Shown piece after piece: positions 4,043 through 38,881 of a stretch of DNA of 64,000 nt. This stretch comes from Gammaproteobacteria bacterium (GTDB lineage Bacteria > Pseudomonadota > Gammaproteobacteria > 21-64-14), in the NCBI GenBank assembly GCA_027013145.1, contig JALUXX010000060.1, positions 38,499 through 102,498 of the forward strand, read 5' to 3'. The position numbers and the translations under genes are program-made. The notes beneath the pieces were generated by a model that saw nothing but the letters and a program-made list of their open reading frames with translations, was not told the origin of the DNA and searched no databases. Position 1 is the first letter of the stretch; each line of letters opens with the position of its first letter.

Positions 4043-4048
4043 GGGGCC

Positions 4049-4882: not shown

Positions 4883-4973
4883 CCGTATCCCTCCCCAGGG
4901 TTGTGGCACGACCCGGGATTCTAACGGCAGAACGCGGACGCGGTCCATGCCCGGTCTGCGGTACGGAGCGCAC

Positions 4974-6011
4974 CTACTCCGTGGTGCGCGCCTGCCGGCG
5001 CAGGCGCAGGCCTTCCATCCATTGCCAGGACAGCAGCATGGGAACACCGTAGCCGACCTGTCGCAGGCGACGGGTCAGCGAAAGCGCCAGTGCGAGGTCG
5101 GGCGTCAGTCCGGTGGCCGCACCGAACAGGACGAAGGCCCCCTCCTGGACGCCGAGTCCGGCCGGCACGATGAACGACGCGCTCTGTACCGCCTGCGCCA
5201 GGCTCTCCAGGAGAACGGCCTCAAGCAGGCTGGGCGGGTGGCCGAGCAGATAGAGGGAGAACCACAGCTCGGCGGCGCCGGCCATGAGCCCCGCAAACTG
5301 CCACCAGGCACAGACCAGGACGCGGGTGCGGTCGCGGTACAGGCTTTGGATGGCGCCGTCGAGGTGTGCCGGGTCGCCGATCAGTGCGAGCACCTCGCGT
5401 CCGGTGATCGCCTGCAGTATGCGCTCGAGGATCTGAAAGAGTCCCCAGCGATGCTGAAGAAGGAAGAACACGATCAGGATCGGCAGCGTCGCGAGCAGTC
5501 CGATGATGAGCATCCGGGCCGCGGTGTTGTCGCGCAAGTAATAGAGCAGGAGGATCAGCCCCGCCAGCGTGAACAGAAACTGCATCGCCAGCGTTACGGT
5601 GATCTCGACGATGACACTGGCGCCGGCGCGGCCGCCCGCAATCCCGCGCAGCATCAGCAGGCGCACGCCGACCATCTCGCCGCCGATCCTCGCAACCGGA
5701 AGCAGGGTGTTGATCGAGTCGCGTACGGACGCCGCCCAGGTCAGAAAGACCATGCCGACGCGCCGTTCCCCCCTTAGCAGCGTGTGCCAGCCGGCGGCGT
5801 CGAGCGCCAGCGGGACGATGTGCACGGGTACGACCCACAGCAGGGTCCAACCGGCGAGGTCGAGAATGTGCAGGATGTCGCCCAGGCCGCTGTGCACGAG
5901 CAGCGCAATGCCCAGGCCCAGGCCCGCAATACCCGAGAGCACGATCGCGGTCCGCAGCCCGCGCGAAATGCGAGGTCCAGGAACGGGAGGCGGGGGCGCG
6001 GCCGCGGTCAC
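4974..6011 (-). CDS. hpnL: HpnL-like flippase-domain membrane protein (LPG synthase TM family)
   Basis: Multi-TM; [10 protein letters not shown] and [14 protein letters not shown] motifs; GTGA overlap with the hpnN stop. Confidence 0.8.
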
Positions 6012-8701
6012 CGGTCCGAGCCCTTGCCGGGGGCGCCCTTGTGCGGTCGGGGTGGACCGCGCAGCACGAGCAGCGCGGGCAGCAGGGTCAGGATGCACAA
6101 CAGGACGGCGGCGAGAGAGATCGAAAGGGTCTGTCCGAGGATCGACATGCCGGGATCGGTGGCCACGGCGAGGCTGCCGAAGGAGCTCATCGTGGTCAGG
6201 GCGCTGAACAGGACCGCGGCGGGCGTGCTGCTGCGCAGGAGATTGGGAACCGCGACCCCGCCGCGCCAGCGGGTCACGAGATAGATTCCGAAGGCCACCC
6301 CGAGCCCGATCAGCAGCGGCAGCACGATGATGTTCGCCAGATTGAAGGAGATTCCGATCAGGTGCATGACCGCCACCGTCAGCAGCGCGGCGAGGCCGAG
6401 CGGGGCGAGGGCGGTGAGGGTGTCGCGGATGCTGCGCAGCGCGAGCAGGAGCAAGGCCGTGATCCCCAGAAGCGAGAGCGACGTGGCCTTGCGGAAGGCG
6501 TGCACCACCGCCTCCCCGCCTTCGACCAGCATGACCGGTGCACCGGAGGCATCCGGTGCCACCGTCTGCACCGACTTCACGAAACGGCGCATGTTGCGGT
6601 TGCTGCTGAGATCGAGAGTCGACAGGACCTCGACCCGCGCCGCGCCGTCGGGGGCCAGGTAACGGGCGCGCAGCGACGCGGGCAGCGTGGTCAACGAGAC
6701 CCGACGCGCATTCAGCGCCAAGCCGAGGTCGCGTACCTGATCGAGGAGGCCGGCGAGCACGCGTTCCTGGAGGATCGCGAGCGCCTTGGGGTGATCTCCG
6801 AACCGCTTGAGATAACGGCGTGTCTCCCGGGCCAGGGCTTCGGCCTCACGGCGGAGTTGCGCGCGGTCGGCGGGGGCATGGAACGCCGCGAGCCGGTTCG
6901 CGAAGTCTTCCAGAGACCGGCGGATGGCCGCCGGGCTCGGTGTCGGCACCTGGGTCGGAATCAGCGCGAACGGGGGCAGCAGCAGCGCCATCTGCTGGAT
7001 GATGGCGAGTTTCTTGGATTGGTCGTCCGGGACGTAGCTCGCGAGCGTCAGCGCATGGGCGACGGTCTTGAGCTTCTCCAGGCGTGCGGCCACCCGCTGC
7101 GCCTGGGCCAGGGTGGGCTCGAGGATGTCGATCGTGTAGGGGGAGGTCTTGCTGTGCTTGAGCAGATAATGAAAGGTCGCAACCGCTTCGCTGCGGGGGT
7201 CCTGGAGGTGCAGCGGATTGAAGTCGAAACGCGCCTGCAGGACCAGGGGCATGCTGGCCACGGCCAGGGCGGCGGCGGTGATGACGATGCCGCGGGCGTG
7301 GCGTTCGACGGGCGGGCGGGCGGTCGCGGACGCCTTCCGCGCCCGCGGCGCGCGGCGTCGAGGGGGGAACAGGGTCAGCAGGGCCGGAAGCACGGTGAGA
7401 TTCGCCACCAGGGCGATGAACATGCTGGTACCGGAGATGATGCCGAGGTCGACGATGCCGGCGTACTCGGTGGGCACGAAGGAATAGAAGCTCACGGCCG
7501 CAGACGTGGCCGCCAGGCACAGCGCCCCGCCGATGCCCCACCCGGTCAGGCGCAGGGCGTGGTCATGCGGGGCGCCGCCGTCGTACTCCTCGCGGTAGCG
7601 CATGCTGAACTGGATCCCGAAGTCCACCCCGAGACCGACGAAGAGCACTGCAAATGCCACCGACATCAGATTCAGGGGACCGATCGCGAACAGGGCGAAG
7701 GCCGCGGTCCAGGCGAGCCCCATGAACAGCGTCAGCAGCGCCGCCGCCACCATGCGCGCCGAGCGCAGGGCGAGCACCAGCAGCAACAGGACGAGGGCGA
7801 TCGAGAGGACCGTCGCGATGCCGGCGCCCTGCGAGACGGTCTTGAGCTGGGCGTTGTCGAGCGCCGCCGACCCGGTCAGGCGCACCCGCAGGCCGTGCGC
7901 GGGATCCAGGTGCAGACTGCGGGCCGCGGCGCGGATCGCGTCCAGAGCCCCCAGCGCCGGCTGCATCCGGCTGTAGTCGAAGCGCGGTTTCACGATCACG
8001 AAGGCGCGGCGATCCTCTTCGCTCTGCCGGGTTCCCCCGATAAGCTCGCCCCAGGGAATCTGATAGAACCGGCCGCGCTCCTGCGCCTGCATGGCCGCGC
8101 GCAGTTGCGCGAGGACGGTGGCGAGGTCCGAGAGTTGCGGACCCGTTCCGCCGGCCCGCTCCAGACCCTGTTCGAGCAGCGAGAGCAGACCCGGAAGCGT
8201 CGGATCCCGGGCCAGTTGCGAGAGGAGGGGTTGGGCCTCGGAGAGGCGGTTCGAGAGCGCCCAGAGCTGTTTCTCGCTGAGGTAGAGCAGCCCGTTGCGG
8301 CGGAAGAACGCCCCGCCCCCGGGGATGTAGACCTCCTGGATCCACCGCTGCCGGCCGCGCAGGTATCGGGCGAGCCGTCGGGCGGCACTCCGCGCCAGAT
8401 CGGCGGTCTGCCCGTCGATCACCACCAGGACGGTGTCGCTGAGCTGCGGAAACTCGCGGTCTAGGCGCTCCTGCACCTGCTGAAACGGGAGATCGCGCGA
8501 GAGCGCGTCGCGCATATCCGTGTTGATGCCGAAGTGGGTCAGGGTGTAGTAGATCGCCGCAGCCGTCAGGGCCAGCGCCAGCAGTACGACCGCACCGGCC
8601 GCGCGCCGCGAACCGTCTACCAGCGTCACCAGGACGCGGACGACCATTCGTCCCAACCGCTCGAGGAGCGAGTCACTCGGATCGGGTTCAGACCAGTTCA
8701 C
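6008..8701 (-). CDS. hpnN: Hopanoid RND/MMPL transporter
   Basis: 897 aa with two MMPL repeats; LFVGLGVDFGIQF and LLIGLGVAFGIY motifs; hpn context. Confidence 0.93.
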   Translation of the reverse strand: MNWSEPDPSDSLLERLGRMVVRVLVTLVDGSRRAAGAVVLLALALTAAAIYYTLTHFGINTDMRDALSRDLPFQQVQERLDREFPQLSDTVLVVIDGQTADLARSAARRLARYLRGRQRWIQEVYIPGGGAFFRRNGLLYLSEKQLWALSNRLSEAQPLLSQLARDPTLPGLLSLLEQGLERAGGTGPQLSDLATVLAQLRAAMQAQERGRFYQIPWGELIGGTRQSEEDRRAFVIVKPRFDYSRMQPALGALDAIRAAARSLHLDPAHGLRVRLTGSAALDNAQLKTVSQGAGIATVLSIALVLLLLVLALRSARMVAAALLTLFMGLAWTAAFALFAIGPLNLMSVAFAVLFVGLGVDFGIQFSMRYREEYDGGAPHDHALRLTGWGIGGALCLAATSAAVSFYSFVPTEYAGIVDLGIISGTSMFIALVANLTVLPALLTLFPPRRRAPRARKASATARPPVERHARGIVITAAALAVASMPLVLQARFDFNPLHLQDPRSEAVATFHYLLKHSKTSPYTIDILEPTLAQAQRVAARLEKLKTVAHALTLASYVPDDQSKKLAIIQQMALLLPPFALIPTQVPTPSPAAIRRSLEDFANRLAAFHAPADRAQLRREAEALARETRRYLKRFGDHPKALAILQERVLAGLLDQVRDLGLALNARRVSLTTLPASLRARYLAPDGAARVEVLSTLDLSSNRNMRRFVKSVQTVAPDASGAPVMLVEGGEAVVHAFRKATSLSLLGITALLLLALRSIRDTLTALAPLGLAALLTVAVMHLIGISFNLANIIVLPLLIGLGVAFGIYLVTRWRGGVAVPNLLRSSTPAAVLFSALTTMSSFGSLAVATDPGMSILGQTLSISLAAVLLCILTLLPALLVLRGPPRPHKGAPGKGSDR

Positions 8702-27369: not shown

Positions 27370-27777
27370 TCAGGCCGCCGGGGCCCCTGAGAGCGTCTCG
27401 ACGATCGGGCAGGGCTGCGCCGCGACACCGGTCCGGCAGGCGTCGATCAGGCGATCGAGCGTCTCCTGCATCGCTGCCAGATCGCGGATCTGGGCCTCGA
27501 TCTGGCGGCGCTTCTGCTCGGCGCGGGAGCGGACATCCGTGCAGCTTCCTTCGCTCAGTGACAGCAGCTCGGCGATCTCCTGAAGGTGGAACCCGAGTCG
27601 CTGGGCGCGCTTGATGAAGCGGATCCGGTCGGCGGCATCGCGCGGATAGTGCCGGTATCCGTGAGCCGGCTTGGCCGGTTCTTCCAGGAGCCCGATGCGC
27701 TGATAGTAGCGAACGGTCTCGACGTTGACGCCGGCGCTCCTGGCGAGCTGACCGATGGTGAAGGGTCTGGTGGTCAT
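27370..27777 (-). CDS. MerR-family metal-responsive regulator with three Hg-MerR-type Cys
   Basis: TIGQLARSAGVNVETVRYYQRIGLL HTH; FIKRAQRLGF; Cys in GSCTDV, DACRT and PCPIV. Confidence 0.9.
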   Translation of the reverse strand: MTTRPFTIGQLARSAGVNVETVRYYQRIGLLEEPAKPAHGYRHYPRDAADRIRFIKRAQRLGFHLQEIAELLSLSEGSCTDVRSRAEQKRRQIEAQIRDLAAMQETLDRLIDACRTGVAAQPCPIVETLSGAPAA

Positions 27778-27805
27778 GATGGCTGCACCCTTTGGTTGAT
27801 GGTGG

Positions 27806-28240
27806 TTAGATGTGGTCCGAATGCGCGGGGTCTGGGGGCGGGCGCCGGTCGAGGCTCAGCAGTGTGTCCTCGCGGCGCAGGACGAACAGCGCCACGAACG
27901 CTGCGAGCACCGGTACGCCGGCGATGAACAGGTGATTGCGGCCGAAGGGGGAGAGGAGTTCCCGGTACGTCGACAGCGTCGATACGGTGTGAAGCAGCAG
28001 TGCCAGTCCGTAGGTTCCGGTCTTCCACCAGCCGGCGAGAAAGGCCGCGCTCAAGAGCAGCTCGGCGACGCCGATGACGCGCGCGGCGGTGGCCGGGATG
28101 TGGAGCCCGTAGAAGTGGGAGAAGATATGGACCGTCCCCTGAGACTGGACCAGCTTGTCGACACTCCACAATGCCAGGAATACCCCCAGCCCCAGCCGCA
28201 ACACGAGCAGCGCGACGCGCAACCTTCCGGTTTCGTTCAT
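27806..28240 (-). CDS. DoxX-family membrane protein
   Basis: LRLGLGVFLALWSVDKL...GVAELL; four hydrophobic segments; GGAGG RBS. Confidence 0.8.
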   Translation of the reverse strand: MNETGRLRVALLVLRLGLGVFLALWSVDKLVQSQGTVHIFSHFYGLHIPATAARVIGVAELLLSAAFLAGWWKTGTYGLALLLHTVSTLSTYRELLSPFGRNHLFIAGVPVLAAFVALFVLRREDTLLSLDRRPPPDPAHSDHI

Positions 28241-28301
28241 GGCTTCCGCTCCTCCCGTCCCCGTGGGTGCCCGTAGGGCGAGTCCGGCGCCCGGACCAAT
28301 A

Positions 28302-28328
28302 GTCGGTCGGTGGGGGGTAGAACTTACA
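28302..28328 (-). promoter_or_regulatory. ECF-type promoter for doxX-merR-TPR
   Basis: Minus strand TGTAAG-N17-CGAC(TA), about 60 bp upstream of the DoxX ATG; the motif recurs four more times in the island. Confidence 0.75.
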
Positions 28329-28400
28329 TTCGCTCCGGGGCCATAAAAGATGATACAATTCAATATGTTAAATGTACGTTTTCGGTCGGGCACCCGCAGA

Positions 28401-28596
28401 GCGGGCCTCGGCCCGCCGACGACGCATCGTCCCAACGAGGTCGGCTCGATCCCACGGTGTCGGTCGGGCAAGCCCGGCCCTACCGACACGTCTCGCGCCG
28501 CCGCGGGTCGCCCGCAGGGCGGGCCTCGGCCCGCCGACGACGCATCCTTCCAACGGGGTCGGTTCGATCCCACGGTGTCGGCCCGGCAAGCCGGGA
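28401..28596. repeat. Two tandem REP doublets of the same family as the 14.7 kb cluster
   Basis: GCGGGCCTCGGCCCGCCGACGACGCATC...GATCCCACGGTGTCGG twice; the first unit ends CGGGCAAGCCCGGCCCTAC. Confidence 0.8.
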
Positions 28597-28624
28597 CCCT
28601 CGGCACCTTCCAGCCGCGGCGCGC

Positions 28625-28651
28625 TGTAAGAAAACGATCCGCCACGGCGAC
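28625..28651 (+). promoter_or_regulatory. ECF-type promoter for the Met-rich lipoprotein-cupredoxin pair
   Basis: TGTAAG-N17-CGAC(TC). Confidence 0.75.
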
Positions 28652-28829
28652 TCTTGCAGCGGGTTTCGTGCGCCCGTGTCCGGCTGCAGAGTCCGTACAC
28701 GCACAACGGTGTCGGCGCGCGGAACGATGATGATCGCGGTTCGCGGCGTTGCGTTGCGCGCCCTGGATCAGGTGCCGGCTACCGGACACCGCGCCCGCGT
28801 ATCCAACACCCTTGCAGGAGATCTCGCGC

Positions 28830-29861
28830 ATGAAACCGAAACTGACAATCGAAGACAGCCGTGTGCGGCGACGTCCGGGCCGGCGATACCTGCTCCTGGG
28901 CGTGCTCGCGGGAGCGACCGCATTGTCGGGTTGTGCCGCCACCCAGAATGCGATGATGAAGATGATGCCCGCGAGCATGAAGCAGAAGATGATGGCGAAG
29001 ATGACGCGGGAGATGCAGGCCCAGGATCCATGGAAGGGCTACCTCGCCGCCCATCGGGGCGAGACCAAGCCCCTCGGGCTGCTCGGCGGACCGGTCCGCG
29101 TGAGCATCCGACAGGAGGGCGGGGGCGTTTTCGTGGCACTGCCCGACTACCGGCGCCTGGACCCCGACGTCTTCGGCACGCCCAAGCTGCCGCGCGCCTA
29201 CGGCGGTACCCCGGGCATCAGCGGCGTGCCCCCCATGGCGCGCGCCGAGGACGACGGCCATTACACCAAGCTCAAGATGCTCAGCCCGTTCGGCGACAAG
29301 TACACGGTGATGGCGGACGGGCGCCTGAAGCTTTCCGCGCTCGATGCCACCGCGACCGACGCCGCGCGTACGCGCGACTGGACGCATATGACGGCGAGCT
29401 GGAAGGACAAGGCGGGCAACGTCTATGAAGTGAAGTGCTGCCGGATGATGGCCGCGCACGGGCTCGAGTTCCCGACCTTCGGCGGCGTGGCGACGAACCT
29501 CATCCTGCACGGGTCATCGCGGATCGGAACGCCGCTGATGCCGACGGAATACACCTACTTCGCTTTCTGGGGTGTCGGCAGCGTGATGAAGAACGGCGAG
29601 GTCGTCGATCCACATCGCCTGATCCACGGCATGCTCACGGAGTATGTGCGCACCACCGGTTACCGCCTGGGCTTCGATAAGGACATCACGCCCACGCGCC
29701 TGCAGTTCCATCTGATGGTGGCGCCGTTCAAGCCCGACATGAAGACGGGTCACTTCGACCCGGCCCCCGTGAAGACGGGGTTCCGCCTCCCGAACGGCAT
29801 GCCGCTGCCCTTCTGGCATGTCATGTTCGAGAACCTGAAGATCGAGGCGCGCCGTGGCTGA
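28830..29861 (+). CDS. Uncharacterised Met-rich, putative Tat-exported lipoprotein
   Basis: AGGAG RBS; RRRPGRRYLLL twin-Arg-like signal; LSGC lipobox; MMKMMPASMKQKMMAKMTREM; strong coding bias. Confidence 0.8.
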   Translation: MKPKLTIEDSRVRRRPGRRYLLLGVLAGATALSGCAATQNAMMKMMPASMKQKMMAKMTREMQAQDPWKGYLAAHRGETKPLGLLGGPVRVSIRQEGGGVFVALPDYRRLDPDVFGTPKLPRAYGGTPGISGVPPMARAEDDGHYTKLKMLSPFGDKYTVMADGRLKLSALDATATDAARTRDWTHMTASWKDKAGNVYEVKCCRMMAAHGLEFPTFGGVATNLILHGSSRIGTPLMPTEYTYFAFWGVGSVMKNGEVVDPHRLIHGMLTEYVRTTGYRLGFDKDITPTRLQFHLMVAPFKPDMKTGHFDPAPVKTGFRLPNGMPLPFWHVMFENLKIEARRG

Positions 29862-30294
29862 GCGGGCGGATAGCGTACGCGCCCGGGCGGGCGTACTGGC
29901 GATGGTCATCCTTGGGGCGGTTTTTGCCGGCGCGCCGTTCGGCGCGCCGGCAGCCGCCGTCGCGTCGGCGCCGGGCGCTGTGATCCGCCTGACGAACACG
30001 CTCGCCTTCGAGCCGAAGGCGGTGACCGTCCACGTGGGCCAGGCGGTCGAGTGGCGCAACGGCTCGCTGCTCGTGCATACGGTGACGGCCGACCCGGCCC
30101 TGGCGGCGAACGCGAAGGACGTCGCCCTCCCGGCCGGGGCCAAGCCGTTCAACTCCGGCGATCTGAAGCCGGGCGCGACCTATCGACATATCTTTGCGGT
30201 TCCGGGTCGCTACCGGTATTTCTGTATCCCGCACGAAGGCGCAGGTATGGTCGGGGAGGTGGTGGTGCTCCCCGCGCAAGTCGGGGTCCGCTGA
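29854..30294 (+). CDS. Plastocyanin/azurin-family blue copper protein
   Basis: Signal peptide; FEPKAVTV..G..VEW.N, VHTVT and YFCIPHEGAGMVG (His/Cys/His/Met type 1 ligands). Confidence 0.93.
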   Translation: MAERADSVRARAGVLAMVILGAVFAGAPFGAPAAAVASAPGAVIRLTNTLAFEPKAVTVHVGQAVEWRNGSLLVHTVTADPALAANAKDVALPAGAKPFNSGDLKPGATYRHIFAVPGRYRYFCIPHEGAGMVGEVVVLPAQVGVR

Positions 30295-30446
30295 AGGTGG
30301 ATCGATGGGTATGGTCGCGTCCGCTCCGCCGTCGTCGCACCCGAAGCGTCGATTGGTCGGATGGGGCGACGAGCAGTGCCGGACGACGTCCACACAACGA
30401 AACATATAGAACGGTTAGCACTACGCGTAGTTGGACGACGTTCAAA

Positions 30447-30464
30447 CTGTGACTCGATTCACAG
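30447..30464. promoter_or_regulatory. CRP-family binding site
   Basis: CTGTGA-CTCGAT-TCACAG, a perfect TGTGA-N6-TCACA, about 290 bp upstream of the multicopper pair. Confidence 0.6.
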
Positions 30465-30749
30465 CTACACGCTACGGCGGCCCCCAGAATCCGTTACCGC
30501 TTGTGTTTGAGATCCGGCTGGTGCGCGGGGTCGGTCCGTCGAGGTGCCTGGAGGCCGGCGGCGGATCCGTCCGGATCCGGTGGAGTACCCGGGGGTGCGG
30601 TCGGAAAAGTCGTCGATCTCCGAAGTTTCTGAACGGTGGGAGTTCGCTCGTGTCCCGGTATAGGGCGGGACCGGAATCAATGGGGCCGGTACGGTCTTCC
30701 CCGGCGAACATGGAATGGAGGACCAACACCAAGAACAAGGGAGAGCGCG

Positions 30750-31751
30750 ATGGAGAGACGGAAATTCCTGAAGATCGGGAGCGCGGGAATCGCCGGTGCG
30801 CTTGTTGCTGGTTCCGGGCTGATAACCTGGAGTAAGCGGGCACACGCAGCGACGATCAACAAGACCTTCTACATCACCGATGGAACTCTTGTTCAGCCCG
30901 ACGGGGTCGGCGTCTATTTCCGAGGGTTCAGTGACGCGGCCAACGGCCTGAACGTGCCTGGAGCTGCCCTAATCGTACAGCAGGGGGACACCGTAAACAT
31001 TACGGTGGTGAACACCCTGTCTACGACGCACAGTTTCGTGATCGACGGCGTTGTGGATAGCGGGCCCATTGCAGGAGGAACCCAGGCAGTGGTGAGCTTT
31101 TCCGCGGAAACGCCTGGGACCTACGCGTACTATGACTCTCAAAATCCGCCCTACAATCGCCTGTTGGGCTTGCACGGGGGGCTCGCGGTAATGCCTTCCG
31201 GTTCCACGAATACGCTGTATGCCGGGAGCCCGACGTTCGTCAAGCAGTATTTCTGGGTGTTCAATGATATTGACCCGGTATGGCATAACGCCCTTGCGGG
31301 GGGTGCGAACCCCACCACACCGTTTTTTCCGCGTTACTTTACGATAAACGGCCTGAGTTCGCGTCCGCCGGGTGCGCCCGGGAACGGTGATCCCTCGGTG
31401 GACGCAAACGCCGACCCGCGGTCGCTCCTCGTCGGCAGTATCGGGGACCGCTCTCTGGTGCGTATGATCAATATGAGCCTATGCACGCATTCCATGCATG
31501 TGCATGCCAACCATATGGAGTGGCTTACGCTTAATGGGGCCATTCGGTCGGATATCTGGAAGAAGGACATTCTCCCACTGTACGGCAACATGGGGAGGGT
31601 GGATGCCATTTACCCGTTTGAGGCTCCACCAGACGCGTATCCGCCGGTGACGACCGGAAACTATCCGATGCATCTGCATGATGAGATGACTCAGACGGCC
31701 GGGGGAGGGCTGTATCTGTTCGGTACCATGACCGAGATTCACTTCGTTTGA
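30750..31751 (+). CDS. Tat-exported two-domain multicopper-oxidase-like protein A (copper motifs only in domain 2)
   Basis: MERRKFLK Tat signal ending AHA; cupredoxin patterns (VQQGDTVNITVVN, PGTY); HSMHVH and MHLH in domain 2. Confidence 0.85.
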   Translation: MERRKFLKIGSAGIAGALVAGSGLITWSKRAHAATINKTFYITDGTLVQPDGVGVYFRGFSDAANGLNVPGAALIVQQGDTVNITVVNTLSTTHSFVIDGVVDSGPIAGGTQAVVSFSAETPGTYAYYDSQNPPYNRLLGLHGGLAVMPSGSTNTLYAGSPTFVKQYFWVFNDIDPVWHNALAGGANPTTPFFPRYFTINGLSSRPPGAPGNGDPSVDANADPRSLLVGSIGDRSLVRMINMSLCTHSMHVHANHMEWLTLNGAIRSDIWKKDILPLYGNMGRVDAIYPFEAPPDAYPPVTTGNYPMHLHDEMTQTAGGGLYLFGTMTEIHFV

Positions 31752-31778
31752 CCACCGAAAAAAGCGAGGAGGGAACTC

Positions 31779-32768
31779 ATGAGCAGCGGAGGAATGTGCG
31801 GCGGCGTCGCCAACGCCTGCTATGTATATCCCGGCGCGCCGGCGACACCCGGAATTGTTACCCCGGACATTTCTTTCAGTCGTGGTATCTATATGGACGG
31901 TTCCATCACCATGGATGACGGTAAGGTCATTACCATCTGGGGATTTACGGACTTGGCTGTGAACAACGGAATGGCCAGACCGTTTCCCTCACCGACGATT
32001 CGGGTGACGGAAGGGCAGATCGTGCATACGAGTCTTGCTGTTCCCGGCGATATGTGGGTGCACACGATCCATCACCATGGTATCGAGCCCGCGTGGCAAA
32101 ATGACGGTGTCGGACATATTTCCTGGGATGTCCAGGGAACTTACATCTACCAATGGCGGCCGCAGCATGCGGGTACTTATTTTTATCATTGCCATACCAA
32201 TACCGTGTTGCACGCGGAAATGGGGATGTACGGCGCCTTGATCGTAGACCCGGTGCCGGATCCGAATGACCCGCCGGGCACCAAGCGGGTATTCGCCGGC
32301 GGACCGGCATACGACGTGGAGGCTGTGTGGGCATGCGACGAGATCGCCTCGTCATGGCACACACTGTGTTGGGACGCGGGGACCTGCGGGGGAGATGCGG
32401 GTCTGAACCGGTTGGAGGCGGATTATTTCATCATTACCGGCGTCGACGGTGCGAAGTCCGCCCTGACCGATCCGCGGGTGGCGGTCAACATGAGTTTGGG
32501 TCAGACTCTTCTGGTCCGTTATATCGCGGCGGGATATTACCCGCAACGGATTACGTTTGGCGGACTTACCGCTACCGTTGTGGCGTCGGATGGTCGGCCT
32601 CTCCCGAATCCCGTGTCGATGACTTCGATCCATGCGGTGGCCGCGGAGCGCTATGACTGCATATTTACCCCGACGGCGACGGGGGTCTATGACGTAACAG
32701 TCGAATTTCTCGACTGGGTGACAGGGAACACGCTGGGCACTGCGCGCACGCGCATCACGGTGTCCTGA
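31779..32768 (+). CDS. Two-domain multicopper-oxidase-like protein B (copper motifs only in domain 1, no signal peptide)
   Basis: GAGGAGG RBS; FPSPTIRVTEG, HTIHHHG, GTYFYHCHTNTVLHAEMGMYG and VVASDGRPL...AERYD. Confidence 0.9.
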   Translation: MSSGGMCGGVANACYVYPGAPATPGIVTPDISFSRGIYMDGSITMDDGKVITIWGFTDLAVNNGMARPFPSPTIRVTEGQIVHTSLAVPGDMWVHTIHHHGIEPAWQNDGVGHISWDVQGTYIYQWRPQHAGTYFYHCHTNTVLHAEMGMYGALIVDPVPDPNDPPGTKRVFAGGPAYDVEAVWACDEIASSWHTLCWDAGTCGGDAGLNRLEADYFIITGVDGAKSALTDPRVAVNMSLGQTLLVRYIAAGYYPQRITFGGLTATVVASDGRPLPNPVSMTSIHAVAAERYDCIFTPTATGVYDVTVEFLDWVTGNTLGTARTRITVS

Positions 32769-32797
32769 CGGGCCAGCGTTTCGGTTCCTTGCTGAAG

Positions 32798-32839
32798 GGA
32801 GCGGGAGTGGGCGGCATTTCTCCGCTCCCGCTCCGTTTT
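32798..32839 (+). terminator. Rho-independent terminator after the multicopper pair
   Basis: GGAGCGGGAG...CTCCCGCTCC stem followed by GTTTT. Confidence 0.7.
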
Positions 32840-33012
32840 CTGTCGGGGTCGCACACGGCGCGGGATCCACTCGTCATTCGTGGAGTGGTCCCGCCGTTCT
32901 TTTTGCTTGATAGCCAGTTGGTGGTTACTCGTGGTGCGATTGCCCTGGCACGCGGGCGCGTGTCCGGCGTGCGGTTTCCTCGCGGGTCGGGCGGCGGTCA
33001 TTGCGAAGGGGA

Positions 33013-33039
33013 TGTAAGAACGAGCGGAGTCGAGGCGAC
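33013..33039 (+). promoter_or_regulatory. ECF-type promoter upstream of the TVP38-oxidoreductase gene
   Basis: TGTAAG-N17-CGAC(CA). Confidence 0.7.
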
Positions 33040-33379
33040 CATAATTCAGTACGTGTAGCGCGGTGGATACCGGAAGAAGCCTAGATGCTATTTTAAAGCG
33101 GGCTCAGCCGCTCGGCAGCGTTGCGGGACCTGTCGCGACGGTCAGTTACTGAAGTATGAACGGCGCCGCTCGTAGGGCCTGCGTCTTGCTTGGAGGCCGG
33201 ACCTGAAGTTGAGGTCCGTCTGCGTTCCGGGCGTTCGCCCGCTAATTGGCGCATCGCCGATCGAACCTGGCCTGCTACACTCTGTGGACGGTCGGCGACT
33301 TTCAATCCGAGAACTTGTCGGTCGGGGCGACGGCGGAGTGGCCGAAAGGTCTCCGAAAGGACATCGGCAGGGCACGGGG

Positions 33380-35512
33380 ATGACAAAAGGACGAATCCTG
33401 CTTCTGCTGCTGGTCGCCGCGGCGATCTACGCGTTCTTCGCCTTCCATCTCGGGGACTACCTGAGTCTGGAATACCTCAAGTCGCGGCAGGCCGACGTGC
33501 AGGCGTATTTCGTGCAGCATCCGTGGTCCACGGGCGGGGCGTTCGCGGCCGGATACATCGCGGTGACAGCCCTGTCGCTGCCGGGGGCGACGATCATGAC
33601 GCTCGCGGCGGGGGCGGTCTTCGGGTTGCTGTGGGGTACGGTCATCGTCTCGTTCGCATCCAGTATCGGTGCGACGCTGGCGTTTCTGGTTTCGCGGTTT
33701 CTCCTGCGCGATGCCGTCCAGCGGCGGTTCGGCGCCAGCCTCGCCGCCGTCAATGCCGGCGTGGAGCGGGACGGGGCCTTCTATCTATTTACCTTGCGCC
33801 TGGTGCCGGCGTTTCCGTTCTTCGTGATCAACCTGGTCATGGGGCTGACGCCGATGAGTGCCCGCACGTTCTATCTGGTAAGCCAGATCGGGATGCTCGC
33901 GGGGACCATCGTGTACGTGAATGCGGGTACGCAGCTCGCGGCGATCCGTTCGCTGGACGGCCTTCTGTCGCCTGGGCTGATCGCCTCGTTCACGCTGCTC
34001 GGCCTCTTCCCCCTGCTGGCGAAGAAGCTCGTCGACGCCCTGCGCCGGCGCAAGGTCTACCGCGGTCATCGCCGGCCGCGGCGCTTCGATCGCAACCTGG
34101 TCGTGATCGGCGCCGGGTCCGCCGGACTGGTCGCGGCCTATATCGGCGCTGCGGTGCGGGCGCGGGTGACGCTCATCGAGCGCGACCGCATGGGCGGCGA
34201 CTGCCTCAATACCGGTTGCGTGCCGTCCAAGGCGCTGATCAGCACGACGCGCCTGCTCGACCGGATGCGCCGGGCGCGGGAGTATGGTCTGCGCTCGGCC
34301 GCCGCGGAGTTCGACTTCGCGGAGGTGATGGAACGGGTCCAGCGGGTCATCCGTCAGGTCGCCCCGCACGACTCGGTCGAGCGCTACACAGCCCTCGGGG
34401 TCGAGTGCGTACAGGGACAGGCGCGCATCACCTCCCCCTTCACCGTCGAGGTCGGCGGGCGCACCCTAAACACGCGTAACATCGTGATCGCCACCGGCGG
34501 CCGCCCGCACGTCCCTGCGATCCCGGGCCTGCGCGAGGCCGGTTTCCGGACCTCGGACACGATCTGGGACCTGCGCAGCCGGCCCGGTACGCTGGCCGTG
34601 CTGGGCGGGGGACCGATCGGAAGCGAGCTGGCGCAGTGCTTCGCGCGCCTGGGCAGCCGCGTCGTCCAGATCCACCGGCGCGACCGACTGCTCCCGCGCG
34701 AGGACCCGGAGATCGCGCGGCTGGTCATGGACCGCTTCCGCGACGAGGGTATCGACCTGCGTCTCGAACACGATCCGCGCGAGGTGCGGATCGAGGACGG
34801 GCGCAAGGTGATCGTGTGCGCCCATGGCGGCGGGGAGGTCCGCATCCCCTGCGACGAGATCCTGGTCGCGACCGGGCGGCAGGCCAACACGGAAGGACTG
34901 GGGCTCGAAGAACTCGGTATCCCTTTGACCGACCGGGGGACGGTGGCGGTCGACGAGTACCTGCGCACCTCCTTCCCGAACATCTACGCCTGTGGTGACG
35001 TCGCCGGGCCCTATCAGTTCACCCACACCGCTGCCCATCAGGCCTGGTACGCGGCGGTCAACGCCTTGTTCGGCCGGTTCCGCCGCTTCAAGGCGGACTA
35101 TTCGGTCATCCCCTGGGCCACGTTCACCGAGCCGGAGGTGGCGCGGGTCGGTCTCAACGAGCAGGACGCCAAAGCGCAGGGGGTCGTCTACGAGGTGACG
35201 ACCTTCCCCCTGGAGGAACTCGACCGGGCGATCGCCGACGGCGAGGCCCACGGCCTGGTCAAGGTGCTCACCGTCCCGGGGCGCGATCGCATCCTCGGGG
35301 TGACCATCGCCGGGGAGCACGCCGGCGACGTCATCGTCGAGTTCATCGCCGCGATGCGCCACGGGCTCGGCCTGAACAAGATCCTCTCGACCATCCACAT
35401 CTACCCCACACTCGCCGAAGCCAACAAGTACGCGGCGGGAGCGTGGAAACGCGCCCACGCCCCGGAACGGGTGCTGGGCTGGCTCGCGCGTTACCACCGC
35501 TGGCAGTTATAA
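33380..35512 (+). CDS. TVP38/TMEM64 (DedA-like) membrane domain fused to a pyridine nucleotide-disulfide oxidoreductase (LpdA/MerA-like)
   Basis: ALSLPGA and LRLVPAFPFFVINL in the membrane part; GAGSAG, GGDCLNTGCVPSK, GGGPIG, ACGDV and HIYPTLAE in the enzyme part. Confidence 0.92.
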   Translation: MTKGRILLLLLVAAAIYAFFAFHLGDYLSLEYLKSRQADVQAYFVQHPWSTGGAFAAGYIAVTALSLPGATIMTLAAGAVFGLLWGTVIVSFASSIGATLAFLVSRFLLRDAVQRRFGASLAAVNAGVERDGAFYLFTLRLVPAFPFFVINLVMGLTPMSARTFYLVSQIGMLAGTIVYVNAGTQLAAIRSLDGLLSPGLIASFTLLGLFPLLAKKLVDALRRRKVYRGHRRPRRFDRNLVVIGAGSAGLVAAYIGAAVRARVTLIERDRMGGDCLNTGCVPSKALISTTRLLDRMRRAREYGLRSAAAEFDFAEVMERVQRVIRQVAPHDSVERYTALGVECVQGQARITSPFTVEVGGRTLNTRNIVIATGGRPHVPAIPGLREAGFRTSDTIWDLRSRPGTLAVLGGGPIGSELAQCFARLGSRVVQIHRRDRLLPREDPEIARLVMDRFRDEGIDLRLEHDPREVRIEDGRKVIVCAHGGGEVRIPCDEILVATGRQANTEGLGLEELGIPLTDRGTVAVDEYLRTSFPNIYACGDVAGPYQFTHTAAHQAWYAAVNALFGRFRRFKADYSVIPWATFTEPEVARVGLNEQDAKAQGVVYEVTTFPLEELDRAIADGEAHGLVKVLTVPGRDRILGVTIAGEHAGDVIVEFIAAMRHGLGLNKILSTIHIYPTLAEANKYAAGAWKRAHAPERVLGWLARYHRWQL

Positions 35513-35546: not shown

Positions 35547-35828
35547 CTACGGCTCGCGGGTGTCGAGGGAGCGGTGCAGGTGTTTCCGCGCCGCCTCGTC
35601 GAGGGCCTTGCGGCGGGCGGCTTCGCGGATCCAGCGCAACTGGTGCGCATAGCGGCGACAGGCCCCGCAGATCAAGAGGTGAATGCGCAGCAGCAGCCAT
35701 TGCCAGCGCGGCAGCCGGTGCTCGCACTCCTCGGACAGCAGGCGTGCGGCATCCCGGCACACGAGGCCCGGCATCGGCAGGCGGCGGCGCGGCCGCGGTT
35801 GCCCGGACGGAGGTGCGCGGTCGTTCAT
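35547..35828 (-). CDS. zf-HC2 zinc-finger anti-sigma-like protein (copy 2)
   Basis: CRDAARLLS...LRIHLLICGACRRY (HxxxCxxC); ATGA overlap with the DUF2063 gene. Confidence 0.85.
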   Translation of the reverse strand: MNDRAPPSGQPRPRRRLPMPGLVCRDAARLLSEECEHRLPRWQWLLLRIHLLICGACRRYAHQLRWIREAARRKALDEAARKHLHRSLDTREP

Positions 35829-36598
35829 GTCAGCTCCCATCCGGTCAGGTTCGCCGCGGCCACCTGGGCGTGCAGCCAGGCGCTGACGTCGGCGTCGGGA
35901 TCGACCGCGAGCGCCCGGTCGCAGGCGGCGCCGAAGGGTTCTCCGCGCTGCAGGGCGGCCAGCAGTTCGAACTGGCCCGGGGTGACCGTGGCGATCTCGA
36001 CGTGTGCGCCCGGGCGCGCGACGACGAGGCAGTCGGCGCCCGCGGCGAGATCGACGCGCTCGTCCGCCGCCGCCGGGTCGGTGCAGATCCGGCGGATCCG
36101 GAACAGGGGGTAGGGCGAGCGCAGCAGCCGCAGCGCGGGGTGTACCTCGAAGCGGATGCGCGGGTAGTCCGCCGGGTCGACGGCGGCCAGTGCGGTGAAA
36201 TCGCCGGGTTCCGGATCGGGGGCGAGCAATGATTCGTGGCAGGCCCAATCGAGGCGCGCGGCGTCGGGCAGATAGACGAGCGACGCGGCGGGCGCGAAGT
36301 CCCGGAGGAATTCGGGAAATCCGGCGCCGTAGTCGTTGAGGTCGCCGGAGACCGACGGGGTCCGACGCGCGTAGCACTCCGCGGCGTGGTCGAAGAACTC
36401 GGGGCCGACGAGGGCGTGCACGGTCTCGAAGACATCGGCCAGGGCGTCGCGGAGATTGCCGAGGACGTTGTTCCGGTAGACCGAAAGGCGGTCGGGGGCG
36501 GGGATGCCGCGTGCGCGGATGAGGCCGGCGACCGCGGCCTCGTCCCCTTCGAAGACGGCGCGCGCGAACGCGCGCTGCAGTTCACGCAGAGACGGCAC
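35825..36598 (-). CDS. bufC: DUF2063 MNIO partner protein (BufC/HvfC-like)
   Basis: LRELQRAFARAV, RLSVYRNN, SGDLNDYGAGFPEFL and YLPDAARLDWA motifs; follows DUF692. Confidence 0.87.
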   Translation of the reverse strand: MPSLRELQRAFARAVFEGDEAAVAGLIRARGIPAPDRLSVYRNNVLGNLRDALADVFETVHALVGPEFFDHAAECYARRTPSVSGDLNDYGAGFPEFLRDFAPAASLVYLPDAARLDWACHESLLAPDPEPGDFTALAAVDPADYPRIRFEVHPALRLLRSPYPLFRIRRICTDPAAADERVDLAAGADCLVVARPGAHVEIATVTPGQFELLAALQRGEPFGAACDRALAVDPDADVSAWLHAQVAAANLTGWELT

Positions 36599-37454
36599 GG
36601 CTCGGCTCCAGGAGGCGGTCGGCACGGCGGGCCTCGCCGAGCAGGGTCTCGATGGGCGGGATGTCGGCGTCCCACTCGATCAGGACGGGGACGGGCCCGA
36701 AGCGTTCGATCGCGCGGTGGTACAGGTCCCAGACGGGCTCGGCCACCGGGCGGCTGTGGGTGTCGATGAGCAGTTCGCGGCCGGCGATGCGCTCGCGGCT
36801 GTGACCGGCCAGATGGATCTCGCGCACGCGCGCCAGCGGGATCGCCTCCAGGTAGGCGAGGGGGTCGAAACCATGGTTGACCGCATTTACGTAGAGGTTG
36901 TTGACGTCGAGCAGGGCGCCGCAGTCGGCGCGCTCGAGGACCTCGACGAGGAATTCCCACTCGGGGAATTCCGACTGGGTGTACTCGAGATAGCTCGAGA
37001 CGTTTTCGATCAGTATCTCGCGCCCGAGGTAGTCCCGGACGCGACGGATGCGGTCGGCGACGTGGATCACGGCGGCACGCGTGCACGGCAATGGGAGCAG
37101 GTCGTGCAGGTAGCGCCCGTCGACGGAACTCCAGGACAGATGCTCGGAGACCAAGCCGGGTTCGAGCCGGCGCACGCGTTCGCGCAGTCGTGCGAGGTGG
37201 CGGGCGTCGAGCGGGTCGGCGGAGCCGAGCGAGAGGCCGACGCCGTGGAAGCTCAGCGGATAGTCGGCGCGGATGCGCTCGACGTCGTGCAACGGGAAGC
37301 CGCCGGCGCAGAAGACGTTTTCGCTGTGGACCTCGAACCAAGCCACCGGCGGGTGTCGGTCGAGGATCTCCTTATAATGAGGCGCGCGCAGGCCGACCCC
37401 GGCCCGTGCCGGGATCGGCCCGCGGCCTGCCTCGCGCGTCGGCGCCCCGCTCAT
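36582..37454 (-). CDS. bufB: DUF692 multinuclear non-heme iron oxidase (MNIO, BufB-like)
   Basis: GVGLRAPH, FEVHSEN, HGVGLSLGS, SEHLSW, IENVSSY, LLDVNNLYVN, EIHLAGH, IDTH and LIEWD motifs. Confidence 0.96.
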   Translation of the reverse strand: MSGAPTREAGRGPIPARAGVGLRAPHYKEILDRHPPVAWFEVHSENVFCAGGFPLHDVERIRADYPLSFHGVGLSLGSADPLDARHLARLRERVRRLEPGLVSEHLSWSSVDGRYLHDLLPLPCTRAAVIHVADRIRRVRDYLGREILIENVSSYLEYTQSEFPEWEFLVEVLERADCGALLDVNNLYVNAVNHGFDPLAYLEAIPLARVREIHLAGHSRERIAGRELLIDTHSRPVAEPVWDLYHRAIERFGPVPVLIEWDADIPPIETLLGEARRADRLLEPSRAVSA

Positions 37455-37463
37455 GGGCCCCCG

Positions 37464-37727
37464 CTACTTGCCGGGGGTCGTGCTGCCGCCCGCAATCTTG
37501 GCGCACACCCCTTTGGGGAGCAGGACGAAGGAGTCGGGGTCCCGGCTCTTGCTCGCCTGCCCCTTGCAGGCATGGTCGGCGCTGGCGCAGTCGTTCTGGT
37601 GCGCCTTGTTGATGCCGTAACATTTCTGCATCGCCGGGGCGGCCGTCGCGGTGGTGGCGAGGCCGACGGCGGACAGGGCCACCAGGGCGCCGATGGCGCT
37701 GCGTACAACGGTGTGGGTGGTTCGCAT
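37464..37727 (-). CDS. bufA: Bufferin-type (DUF2282) RiPP precursor, copy 2
   Basis: Signal peptide, then KCYGINKAHQNDC...HACKGQ...LPKGVCAKIAGG (four Cys); AGGAG RBS. Confidence 0.92.
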   Translation of the reverse strand: MRTTHTVVRSAIGALVALSAVGLATTATAAPAMQKCYGINKAHQNDCASADHACKGQASKSRDPDSFVLLPKGVCAKIAGGSTTPGK

Positions 37728-37798
37728 CTCGTGCTCTCCTGTGCAGTTGCGATTACGATGACGAGGAGCGGTGATCGGCCGGCCGGCGCCTGCGCGGG

Positions 37799-38074
37799 TC
37801 ACCCGTGTGCACCGCCGGGGGTGAGACTGCCGCCCTCGATGCGTTTGCAGGCCCCTCTGGGAACCAGGACGAAGGCGTCGGGGTCGCGGTCCTTGGTGGC
37901 CTGGCCGGCGCAGGCGTTGCTGCCGGTGGCGCAGTCGTTCATGTGGGCCTTGTTGATGCCGTAGCACGGGACCATCGGCGGCGGTTTCGCCGCGGCCTGC
38001 TGCGCGAACGCAACGGTCCCGGACGCCAGCAGGGCCGCGAGTGCGGTGCGGGAGACCAGACGACTGTCCTTCAT
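37799..38074 (-). CDS. bufA: Bufferin-type (DUF2282) RiPP precursor, copy 1
   Basis: Signal peptide, then PCYGINKAHMNDC...NACAGQ...VPRGACKRIEGG (four Cys); GGAGG RBS. Confidence 0.92.
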   Translation of the reverse strand: MKDSRLVSRTALAALLASGTVAFAQQAAAKPPPMVPCYGINKAHMNDCATGSNACAGQATKDRDPDAFVLVPRGACKRIEGGSLTPGGAHG

Positions 38075-38305: not shown

Positions 38306-38881
38306 ATGGATCTGAAGCCGGAGGAGTGGCTGGAGGCGCACGGCGACGCCTTGTATCGCTATGCCCTGGTCCGGACCGGGCAGCGCGATGTGGCCGAAGA
38401 CCTGGTGCAGGAGACGCTGCTCGCCGCGTGGCGCGGGCGCGACGGGTTCCGCGCCGCCTCCGGCGAGCGTACCTGGCTCTTCGGCATCATGAAGCATAAG
38501 ATCGACGACCACTTCCGGCGCACGGCGCGCACGGGCGGCGTGCTGCCGGCGCCGGACGAGGATACGGCGGTCGACGAGGAATCGCTGGAGTTCGGCGAGG
38601 ACGGGAGCTGGCGCACCCGGCCCGGGGTCTGGGGCGGCGACCCCCTGGGTCAGGCCGAGGCCGAGGAGTTCTGGCAGGAACTGCACCGGTGCCTGGAGCG
38701 GCTGCCCGTGCGTCTGCGCGAAGGTTTCGTGCTACGCGAGCTGTCGGGGCTGGAGAGCCGTCAGATCTGCGAGGTGCTGGAGATCTCGGAAAACAACCTC
38801 TACGTGCTGTTGCATCGGGCGCGCCTGCGCGTGCGCTCGTGCCTCGAGCGGAGCTGGTTCGGCGGCGGGGAGCGGCCGTGA
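38306..38881 (+). CDS. ECF sigma-70 family factor
   Basis: AEDLVQETLLAAW, RTWLFGIMKHKIDD and FVLRELSGL...ICEVLEISENNLYVLLHRARLR. Confidence 0.95.
   Translation: MDLKPEEWLEAHGDALYRYALVRTGQRDVAEDLVQETLLAAWRGRDGFRAASGERTWLFGIMKHKIDDHFRRTARTGGVLPAPDEDTAVDEESLEFGEDGSWRTRPGVWGGDPLGQAEAEEFWQELHRCLERLPVRLREGFVLRELSGLESRQICEVLEISENNLYVLLHRARLRVRSCLERSWFGGGERP

Follow-up and report, generated by a model that had tools for sequence, protein, structure and literature searches.

Multicopper oxidases (MCOs) are textbook enzymes whose architectures are thought to have been catalogued. In the two-domain members, the trinuclear copper cluster forms where domain 1 of one subunit meets domain 2 of its neighbour. 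Here we describe two adjacent genes, termed A and B, from a gammaproteobacterial genome (assembly GCA_027013145.1), which are located in a stretch of 64,000 nucleotides (nt) of contig JALUXX010000060.1 (positions 38,499 to 102,498), hereafter called the window; all positions refer to it. Gene A (30750–31751) encodes a protein of 333 amino acids (aa) with a twin-arginine translocation (Tat) signal, and gene B (31779–32768), which follows on the same plus strand after an intergenic gap of 27 nt, encodes a signal-less protein of 329 aa; both products comprise two cupredoxin domains. We propose that A and B are two subunits of one exported MCO with a shared copper cluster, a reading to which we assign a probability of about 0.62.

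The closest solved relatives of A and B are the type-C two-domain oxidases, represented by the blue copper oxidase of Nitrosomonas europaea (3G5W) and by the metagenomic laccase mgLAC (2ZWN). Like A and B, these proteins consist of two cupredoxin domains and are about 300 aa long, and their type-1 copper is bound in domain 1, as predicted for B, whereas A has no type-1 site. The main difference is that a type-C oxidase carries all four HxH motifs in one chain and forms a homotrimer with three clusters, whereas A and B divide the motifs between paralogs, and for this reason a homo-oligomer of either protein could build no cluster. Moreover, only one chain of the A/B pair has an export signal. 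The single chain with four HxH motifs that defines type C was found neither in A or B, nor in their orthologs, nor in the distant pairs discussed below. The part of PMC11761707 that was accessible likewise places the cluster of a two-domain oxidase at the subunit interface. We considered the two-domain oxidase termed a 'heterotrimer' as a precedent, and rejected it because, as far as the same part of that source goes, it is a proteolysed homotrimer.

The CueO, PcoA and CopA proteins resemble the pair in being Tat-exported periplasmic MCOs (for A and B this export is a prediction) encoded beside copper efflux genes, in having Met-rich segments near the type-1 site (seen in most B orthologs, short in this B), and in the catalytic copper set, which we propose to be the same; they are, however, single three-domain chains of about 500–600 aa, whereas A and B have two domains each. 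Neither A nor B reaches the cutoff of the curated NCBIfam models for CopA/PcoA, CueO, NirK and ascorbate oxidase. We have therefore rejected identity with CueO/PcoA/CopA (TIGR01480: 68.3 bits for B and 23.7 for A versus 479; for CueO, NF008205: 29.7 for B and 21.8 for A versus 525) and with NirK (TIGR02376: 27.3 bits for A and 28.3 for B versus 296), the ligand pattern being that of a trinuclear site.

Ceruloplasmin and MnxG of the Bacillus Mnx complex are six-domain proteins with one trinuclear cluster at one interface, in which some domains are metal-free or carry type-1 copper only; the accessory MnxE and MnxF subunits are small and contribute no cluster ligands. Both are single six-domain chains, in contrast to A and B, i.e. 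two chains of two domains, each of which would supply half of a cluster. The fungal heterodimeric laccases of the POXA3 type are MCO heterodimers, as we propose for A and B, yet according to the accessible part of PMC10443355 their large subunit is itself laccase-like and its partner is a small protein, whereas A and B would both be half-enzymes. A full-text search of the literature returned no description of a split, heteromeric or four-domain bacterial MCO. A paper on Thiobacillus denitrificans gives Tbd_1324/1325 (strain ATCC 25259) the name 'pcoAB', which may refer either to the A/B pair or to classical PcoA/PcoB.

Pfam models Cu-oxidase_3, Cu-oxidase_2 and Cu-oxidase match both A and B above the gathering score. 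At the sequence level B retrieves the type-C oxidases (3g5w, E-value 9e-17; 2zwn, E-value 7e-15), and A retrieves only the N-terminal cupredoxin domains of copper nitrite reductases (E-value about 1e-9). Foldseek searches with the AlphaFold models (pLDDT, the predicted local distance difference test, 83.5 for A and 76.5 for B) identified 2zwn and 3g5w as the best matches of A (E-value 4e-20) as well as of B (E-value 3e-20), with a probability of 1.00 to two-domain oxidases, NirK and laccases for both models, even though A and B are only about 20–22% identical to 2zwn and 3g5w. Direct comparison of A with B by hhalign gave a probability of 98.9% at 24% identity. On these similarities we classify A and B as paralogs of each other and as two-domain cupredoxin proteins of the type-C two-domain oxidase lineage. 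Databases name their homologs only 'multicopper oxidase domain-containing protein' or similar.

A first-pass annotation of the window, made from the sequence and its translations, had proposed that A and B carry complementary sets of copper ligands, quoting for A the motifs THSFVIDG, YAYYDSQ, HSMHVH and HLH and for B the motifs HTIHHHG and HCH-x5-H-x4-M, and we found all of these where it had placed them. Domain 1 of A (about residues 34–180) has lost all copper ligands, leaving THSFVIDG (residues 93–100) and YAYYDSQ (residues 125–131) as remnants of the lost motifs. Domain 2 of A (about residues 185–333) retains the four His predicted for a trinuclear site, in the motif HSMHVHANH (residues 247–255; 31488–31514) and in HLH (residues 308–310; 31671–31679), where Leu stands at the position of the type-1 Cys. 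Domain 1 of B is predicted to contain a type-1 site together with four trinuclear-site His: in HTIHHHG (residues 95–101; 32061–32081) H95 would be a type-1 ligand and H98 and H100 trinuclear-site ligands, and in HCHTNTVLHAEMGM (residues 137–150; 32187–32228) H137 and H139 would serve the trinuclear site and C138, H145 and M150 the type-1 site. No ligands are predicted in domain 2 of B.

In a profile alignment of the two proteins, Y128, D129 and S130 of A stand opposite H137, C138 and H139 of B, N136 opposite H145, and L141 opposite M150; in turn, T259 and G261 of B stand opposite H250 and H252 of A. It is because of this reciprocal pattern that each protein appears to lack exactly what its partner keeps. 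The full type-1 site (H95, C138, H145, M150) is found in B, and A is without one, with D129 and L309 in place of Cys. The eight His in four HxH motifs are complete only for A and B jointly and for neither of them alone. Comparison of 38 orthologs of each protein agrees with the profile alignment on the loss of the domain-1 ligands in A and the lack of motifs in domain 2 of B: residues H250, H252, H255, H308, L309 and H310 are invariant in A, and H95, H98, H99, H100, H113, H137, C138, H139, H145, M148 and M150 are invariant in B. A pattern kept this strictly is not due to chance. One detail has to be amended, since in HSMHVH the residues H250 and H252 are indeed invariant, but the first His (H247) is mostly Gln in the orthologs and is not a ligand.

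The division extends to distant relatives. All ten distant A-like proteins (29–38% identity) keep H250, H252, H255, H308 and H310 and also D129, with no ligand His in domain 1 apart from a His at position 128 in one sequence (L074). The complete set of domain-1 ligands is present in each of the 12 B-like sequences; domain-2 His are absent from 11 of them and found only in a stand-alone protein used as control (L078). The ligands of HTIHHHG are invariant throughout the 38 B orthologs, the 12 distant B-like sequences and four single-chain A–B fusions described below; M150 is replaced by Leu in two of the four fusions. Position 309 of A is Cys, forming HCH, in three of the ten distant A-like proteins and in two of the four fusions; the Leu of A at the type-1 Cys position is, as had been read from the window, a loss. 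Since three distant A-like proteins possess HCH, some relatives of A may hold a second type-1 site. Judged from these alignments, the complementary split of ligands is old and maintained.

Two further groups of invariant residues deserve mention. Domain 1 of A, at or beside the former type-1 positions, has invariant D129, Y135, N136, R137 and H142 (31134–31175), of which D129 is kept in 10 of 10 distant A-like proteins and in 4 of 4 fusions. In B, C14 (31818–31820) and C203 (32385–32387) are invariant in the 38 orthologs; three of the four fusions and the nearer of the distant pairs also have them, but the more remote pairs do not; residues 15–27 and 200–212, near these two Cys, lie in the modelled interface with A. 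C14 and C203 could form a disulfide or an extra metal site.

The first-pass annotation had named frequent single occurrence of homologs as an objection to its proposal. A scan for orthologs, with one genome per species, yielded 62 loci, of which 57 carry an A ortholog at 47–72% identity, mostly in sulfur- and iron-oxidising Gamma- and Betaproteobacteria (Thiobacillus, Gallionellales, Thiohalophilus, Thiogranum, Thiohalobacter). In 53 of these 57 loci the next gene after A, on the same strand, is B; the contigs of the remaining four end 133–211 nt past A, so that the linkage holds in all 53 loci with room for a second gene. Two loci look damaged or mis-assembled: in L045, a contig of 2266 nt, A residues 1–219 are followed directly by B residues 154–328, and in L057 A and B are each split over several open reading frames (ORFs).

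Among 401 evenly drawn genomes of the class, searched at a threshold of E≤1e-20, an A-like protein is present in 23 and a B-like protein in 24, with 22 genomes in common. In the single genome with A only (G307) a weaker B-like gene adjoins A downstream (locus L075). As for the two genomes with B only, the hit in G251 (72% complete) is a fragment at a contig end, and the hit in G266 is the above-mentioned L078, a two-domain oxidase of the ordinary kind, which is complete, has a signal of its own and possesses domain-2 His. Thus homologs do occur as pairs (53 of 53 loci with room, and 22 of 23 A-bearing genomes plus the adjacent B-like gene in the 23rd) and not often singly, the only stand-alone B-like protein that we examined being that ordinary oxidase. 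The source genome (99.9% complete) contains a single A, a single B and no further paralogous subunit; its two other, longer oxidase-like ORFs (617 and 642 aa) are unrelated to the pair and may be of the classical three-domain type. Word-indexed searches returned 720 matches for A and 1097 for B, and 1.84 billion representatives, when searched with a profile of A, yielded 2932 matches, with 144 clusters at 50% identity among those with E≤1e-30. The arrangement is widespread in bacteria.

Among 13 sequences taken from 150 listed profile matches, long ones being chosen, we identified at least four single-chain fusions in which an A-like half precedes a B-like half (P0259, P0267, P0271 and P0297). 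In these chains the first half shares 31–36% identity with A and the second 37–45% with B, and linkers of about 30 residues join the two; both ligand sets are intact in all four, and P0259 and P0267 start with a Tat motif. A word-indexed search among longer proteins revealed no close A–B fusion, only proteins at 23–32% identity. Five examined members of a separate single-chain family (P0243, P0244, P0249, P0251 and P0253; 614–645 aa), one of which is named from Gemmatimonadales, have four cupredoxin-like parts and exactly four HxH motifs, which are confined to parts 2 and 3 (HLH and HCH in part 2, HWH and H(T/S)H in part 3). The layout is that of A followed by B, but the type-1 Cys is on the first half. 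Four other proteins (P0263, P0268, P0277 and P0289) are A-like with HCH in domain 2 and with an N-terminal extension of about 150–210 residues. This extension resembles a membrane domain, contains an HxAEGGHE-like motif as well as several hydrophobic stretches, and is followed by an internal RR-type motif.

The existence of the single-chain fusions is the best evidence for a 1:1, four-domain working unit. We modelled the complex at this ratio from A residues 34–333 and B, each with its alignment, in three runs and with three controls. The interface score ipSAE (interaction prediction score from aligned errors) was 0.95 in the three runs and 0.00 for the best control; in the calibration of this score, 116 of 157 solved complexes and 2 of 215 mismatched pairs reached the 0.95 mark. 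The runs share at least 98% of contacts, and the partner pLDDT is at least 94. The modelled interface comprises 53 residues of A, of which 52 are in domain 2 (including H250, H252, H255 and H310, with positions 250 and 252–255 all in contact) and one, residue 51, in domain 1. On the side of B it comprises 30 residues of domain 1 (including H100, H113 and 141–147) and 30 residues of domain 2. Invariant residues make up 34% of the interface and 20% of the rest in A, and 35% versus 28% in B. The C-terminus of A (residue 329) and the N-terminus of B (residues 15–27) are both at the interface, in line with the shortness of the fusion linkers.

Gene linkage, ligand split, fusions and the complex model together support the earlier suggestion that A and B form an obligate heteromer with one trinuclear site between domain 2 of A and domain 1 of B. 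In the mechanism that we envisage, domain 2 of A would pack on domain 1 of B so that eight His assemble one trinuclear copper cluster at the interface. Electrons would enter at the type-1 copper of B and pass over the bridge from Cys138 to His137 and His139 to the cluster, where O2 would be reduced to water. The enzyme would most likely be a 1:1 four-domain unit with both outer domains metal-free.

Several observations weigh against this picture. The solved homotrimers of two-domain oxidases have their clusters at the same kind of interface, and because of this the score of the complex may reflect likeness to them rather than binding. A H308 and B H98, H137 and H139 are missing from the touching residues of the model, and of the 60 residues that B contributes to the modelled interface, half (30) belong to its domain 2, a contact that may differ from the canonical one of the trimers. 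The 1:1 stoichiometry is argued from the fusions. Finally, genome G252 encodes an A-like protein (29% identity) with no B-like gene in the 660 nt to the contig end, and its two B-like genes, one of which has its own Tat-lipoprotein signal, are on another contig.

The stoichiometry could also be different. A ring of three two-domain subunits (A2B or AB2), i.e. a ceruloplasmin-like six-domain array with one complete trinuclear site, or a larger mixed oligomer, would be in line with the solved two-domain oxidase and NirK matches, all of which are described as trimers or larger (by their titles and in the accessible part of PMC11761707), and with the 1:1 model itself, which leaves domain 1 of A nearly free of contacts (residue 51 only), as if it represented one interface of a ring. 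We regard such an assembly as improbable, given that the single-chain fusions fix a 1:1 ratio and that the family of 614–645 aa has four domains with four HxH motifs; the genome encodes one A, one B and no third paralog, and the two genes are adjacent, each with its own ribosome-binding site, with no hint of unequal dosage.

The proposed four-domain oxidase would have to be exported, and only A carries a recognisable signal. The putative twin-arginine signal peptide of A occupies residues 1–33 (ERRKFLK ... AHA/A; 30750–30848, plus strand); R3, R4 and F6 of its motif are invariant in the 38 A orthologs, the Pfam model PF10518 is precomputed on several A homologs, and residues 1–24 are disordered in the predicted model. 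Signal peptides were judged from motif and hydropathy, and by eye for the distant pairs. The N-terminus of B is a variable Gly/Met-rich stretch with a hydrophobic core in none of the 38 orthologs, and the median maximum hydropathy over 12 residues is 0.83 for B versus 1.68 for A. The assignment of a Tat signal to A only, made in the first-pass annotation, thus holds across the orthologs. This arrangement is reminiscent of the Tat hitch-hikers, such as the small and large subunits of hydrogenases, DmsAB and NxrAB, in which one twin-arginine signal serves a signal-less partner that would be co-exported after cofactor insertion; for NxrAB, this principle is quoted in the accessible part of PMC3578206. 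By analogy, the copper-loaded A+B heterodimer would fold in the cytoplasm, and the twin-arginine signal of A would direct it across the membrane, B being the hitch-hiker. Our literature search returned no MCO described as using this route.

Hitch-hiking makes a prediction, namely that a folded heterodimer needs one Tat signal, whereas Sec export of unfolded chains needs one signal each. Among the ten distant A-like proteins, eight have the RR motif, and the N-termini of their partners are Gly/Met-rich and non-hydrophobic. In the two others (L069 and L075) the A-like protein lacks the RR motif and would use a Sec-type signal instead, and here the N-terminus of the B-like protein is hydrophobic and resembles a signal in its own right. 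This co-variation of signal types fits the Tat hitch-hiking of B on A.

The same two loci bear on the possibility that there is no shared copper site at all, B acting alone or as a homo-oligomer with type-1 copper only, and A being a dead paralog that serves as an escort, a copper binder or a regulator. Pseudo-enzyme paralogs are common, and domain 1 of A does keep invariant residues of its own (D129, Y135, N136, R137 and H142). Nevertheless, the five His in domain 2 of A are invariant in the fusions as well as in all A-like sequences between 100% and 29% identity, which would be hard to explain without metal binding, and they sit at the modelled interface with B; B alone has half a trinuclear site. 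Strict co-occurrence and fusion exceed the needs of an escort, and the pair is retained even in L069 and L075, where both proteins would carry their own signals. We therefore consider this explanation very improbable.

Returning to the shared-cluster oxidase, a broader interpretation, to which we would give even odds, is that the A/B pair and the fusions represent a fourth MCO architecture, next to the two-domain homotrimers and the chains of three and of six domains, and possibly a surviving intermediate toward single-cluster multi-domain oxidases. Its four-domain layout would be a dead domain, a cluster-half, a cluster-half with type-1 copper, and a second dead domain, with the cluster at the central junction, and the unit would exist naturally in three forms, a fused one and two split ones, of which one relies on Tat hitch-hiking and the other on two Sec signals. 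The route that we picture would start from homotrimeric two-domain oxidases and proceed by duplication, reciprocal loss of ligand sets and fusion; the evidence backs the four-domain architecture directly, and not this evolutionary order.

The two genes appear to form a transcription unit of their own. Shine-Dalgarno sites read from the sequence precede A (AAGGGAGAG, 30737–30745, plus strand; Shine-Dalgarno-like) and B (GAGGAGGG, 31766–31773, plus strand; 5 nt 5' of the ATG). A consensus scan identified a hairpin with 16-nt arms on the plus strand (32795–32837), 27 nt past the stop codon of B, and a second stem with a T-run (32882–32900, plus strand), which are likely to mark the end of the two-gene unit. 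A scan of positions 30250–33300 for sigma-70 promoters returned no promoter-like site, and among the inverted repeats near the pair no CueR-like operator stood out. A CRP/FNR-type palindrome, TGTGA-N6-TCACA, which has no strand assigned, is located 302 nt upstream of A (30448–30463); it is the sole match in the window, and 0 of 100 shuffles matched. Of 53 regions upstream of A, the window included, eight have an exact copy no more than 450 nt from the gene and three more have a copy with one mismatch, compared with 0 exact and 2 one-mismatch copies in 223 control stretches. The exact copies, in the window and in L006, L015, L027, L029, L032, L048 and L051, are 115–312 nt upstream of A. A Crp-family gene lies directly upstream of A in L006, L015 and L033, the last with a one-mismatch box, and the palindrome is a possible operator for a Crp-family regulator.

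With respect to function, we tentatively suggest, at slightly less than even odds, that the enzyme is a periplasmic Cu(I) oxidase acting beside CusBA-type efflux in copper defence. This suggestion is based on linkage to Cus genes, on the Gly/Met-rich segments of B, and on a copper-stress island around the pair. A CusB-like adaptor (heavy-metal-binding domain and CusB barrel-sandwich) and a CusA/CzcA protein (TIGR00914, 1214 bits versus a cutoff of 701) are encoded directly downstream of the pair on the same strand in 17 of the 45 loci with room; in L021 the Cus genes are downstream too, with overlapping ORFs, and Cus-like genes are found elsewhere in five more loci. Most B orthologs possess a Gly/Met-rich (GGM-type) N-terminus and domain-1 loop. 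A survey of neighbours, in which 141 of 205 candidate ORFs were scanned, revealed mostly housekeeping genes and no further recurrent partner.

Some of the evidence points away from a role in copper defence. No Cus genes are found in 22 of the 45 loci, and the Cus-linked loci are mostly from related betaproteobacteria and hence not independent. The B of this window has Gly/Met-rich segments of small length only. Upstream, the conserved palindrome belongs to the CRP type and is not a CueR or CusR site. In L021, from Thiobacillus, genes for a quinol-type NorB and an Rrf2-family protein are directly upstream of the A-B-CusB-CusA array (3541–6535 of that locus).

These points could be accommodated if the same heteromeric enzyme acted on a substrate other than Cu(I), such as Fe(II) (ferroxidase activity has been proposed for the PcoA-type oxidases that iron oxidisers possess), an electron carrier of the periplasm (e.g. 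a plastocyanin-like protein encoded nearby), phenolics or Mn(II), or took part in hydroxylamine, nitrite or NO chemistry, which has been reported for other two-domain oxidases. Besides the 22 loci without Cus genes, the CRP-type box and Crp-family genes in place of a copper sensor, and the NorB and Rrf2-family genes of L021, such a substrate would suit the sulfur- and iron-oxidising chemolithotrophs that carry the pair (Thiobacillus, Gallionellales, Thiohalophilus, Thiogranum), the plastocyanin-like gene upstream in the window, the origin of the closest solved relatives from nitrifiers, and the oxidation of hydroxylamine by a two-domain oxidase of Nitrosopumilus mentioned in the accessible part of PMC11761707. 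We nonetheless find another substrate unlikely. The Cus genes are the only functionally telling recurrent neighbours. NorB/Rrf2 genes are found in one locus and a Crp gene in three of the 57, and we dropped them as a basis for function on account of this rarity. The score against the NirK model (27–28 bits versus 296) is far under the cutoff, and the eight conserved His argue for an O2-reducing trinuclear site and not for the type-2 site of NirK, which comprises three His together with a catalytic Asp/His. The plastocyanin-like gene, together with the gene for a 370-aa putative lipoprotein that precedes it and a MerR-family gene, was rejected as a part of the system, as none of them is linked to the pair in the other 57 loci.

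Cu(I) oxidation is also the role that the surroundings of the pair would favour, since the gene content of this part of the window is that of a copper-stress island. Upstream, on the minus strand, model scores identify a MerR-family regulator followed by a DoxX-family membrane protein of 144 aa (27370–28240). The regulator obtains 150.6 bits on the MerR equivalog model, just below its cutoff of 150.85, and is matched by the CueR and ZntR models too. On the plus strand, the 370-aa ORF overlaps by 8 nt with the gene of the plastocyanin-like protein, which is 146 aa long (together 28749–30294). The 370-aa ORF has no Pfam or NCBIfam match; when translation is taken to start at an internal Met (MKPKL...), the product shows a lipoprotein-like signal (LSGC) as well as a segment rich in Met, MMKMMPASMKQKMMAKM. 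Tandem Repeats Finder identified nothing in 28200–28800, where the translations of ORFs look repetitive.

Downstream of the pair, a plus-strand gene (33209–35512) encodes a VTT/DedA-type membrane domain fused to a MerA-like class-I pyridine-nucleotide disulfide oxidoreductase (MerA model, 410 bits versus a cutoff of 454). Six other A/B pairs have a gene for an oxidoreductase of this superfamily without the fusion (about 30% identity) in their loci. In L004, L025, L033, L054 and L057 it follows B on the same strand, and in L051 it is upstream of A. A minus-strand operon (35825–38074) follows, with two tandem genes for DUF2282 precursor-like peptides (37464–37727 and 37799–38074), one for an MbnB/TglH/ChrH-family enzyme (36582–37454) and one for a DUF2063 protein (35825–36625); an extracytoplasmic function (ECF) sigma factor gene (38306–38881, plus strand) is divergent from it. 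We take this operon to be the gene set of the copper-binding 'bufferins', a group of ribosomally synthesised and post-translationally modified peptides.

The pair differs in composition from its surroundings. A and B have a GC content of 0.58–0.59 and a GC content at third codon positions (GC3) of 0.67–0.69, compared with a GC3 of 0.84–0.87 in the neighbouring genes, and the GC content is 0.60–0.62 over positions 30000–34000 of the window versus about 0.70 elsewhere. Neither gene was found in two genomes of the same genus (97% and 96% complete). Based on the low GC and GC3 and on this absence, the A/B cassette was probably acquired horizontally into the copper-stress island.

If our interpretation is correct, an obligate heteromer in which each paralog supplies half a cluster would be a new way to build an O2-reducing site, and a natural case in which duplicated genes degenerate reciprocally and thereby lock two subunits together. 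Export by Tat hitch-hiking would be a first for an MCO. As the family appears in databases under generic names, one half produced by itself would probably show no activity and so be misjudged. For studying how copper-cluster assembly, export route and gene fusion co-evolve, the three forms (split, Sec/Sec and fused) would offer a comparative series, in a family that is large and found in environmentally important sulfur- and iron-oxidising bacteria.

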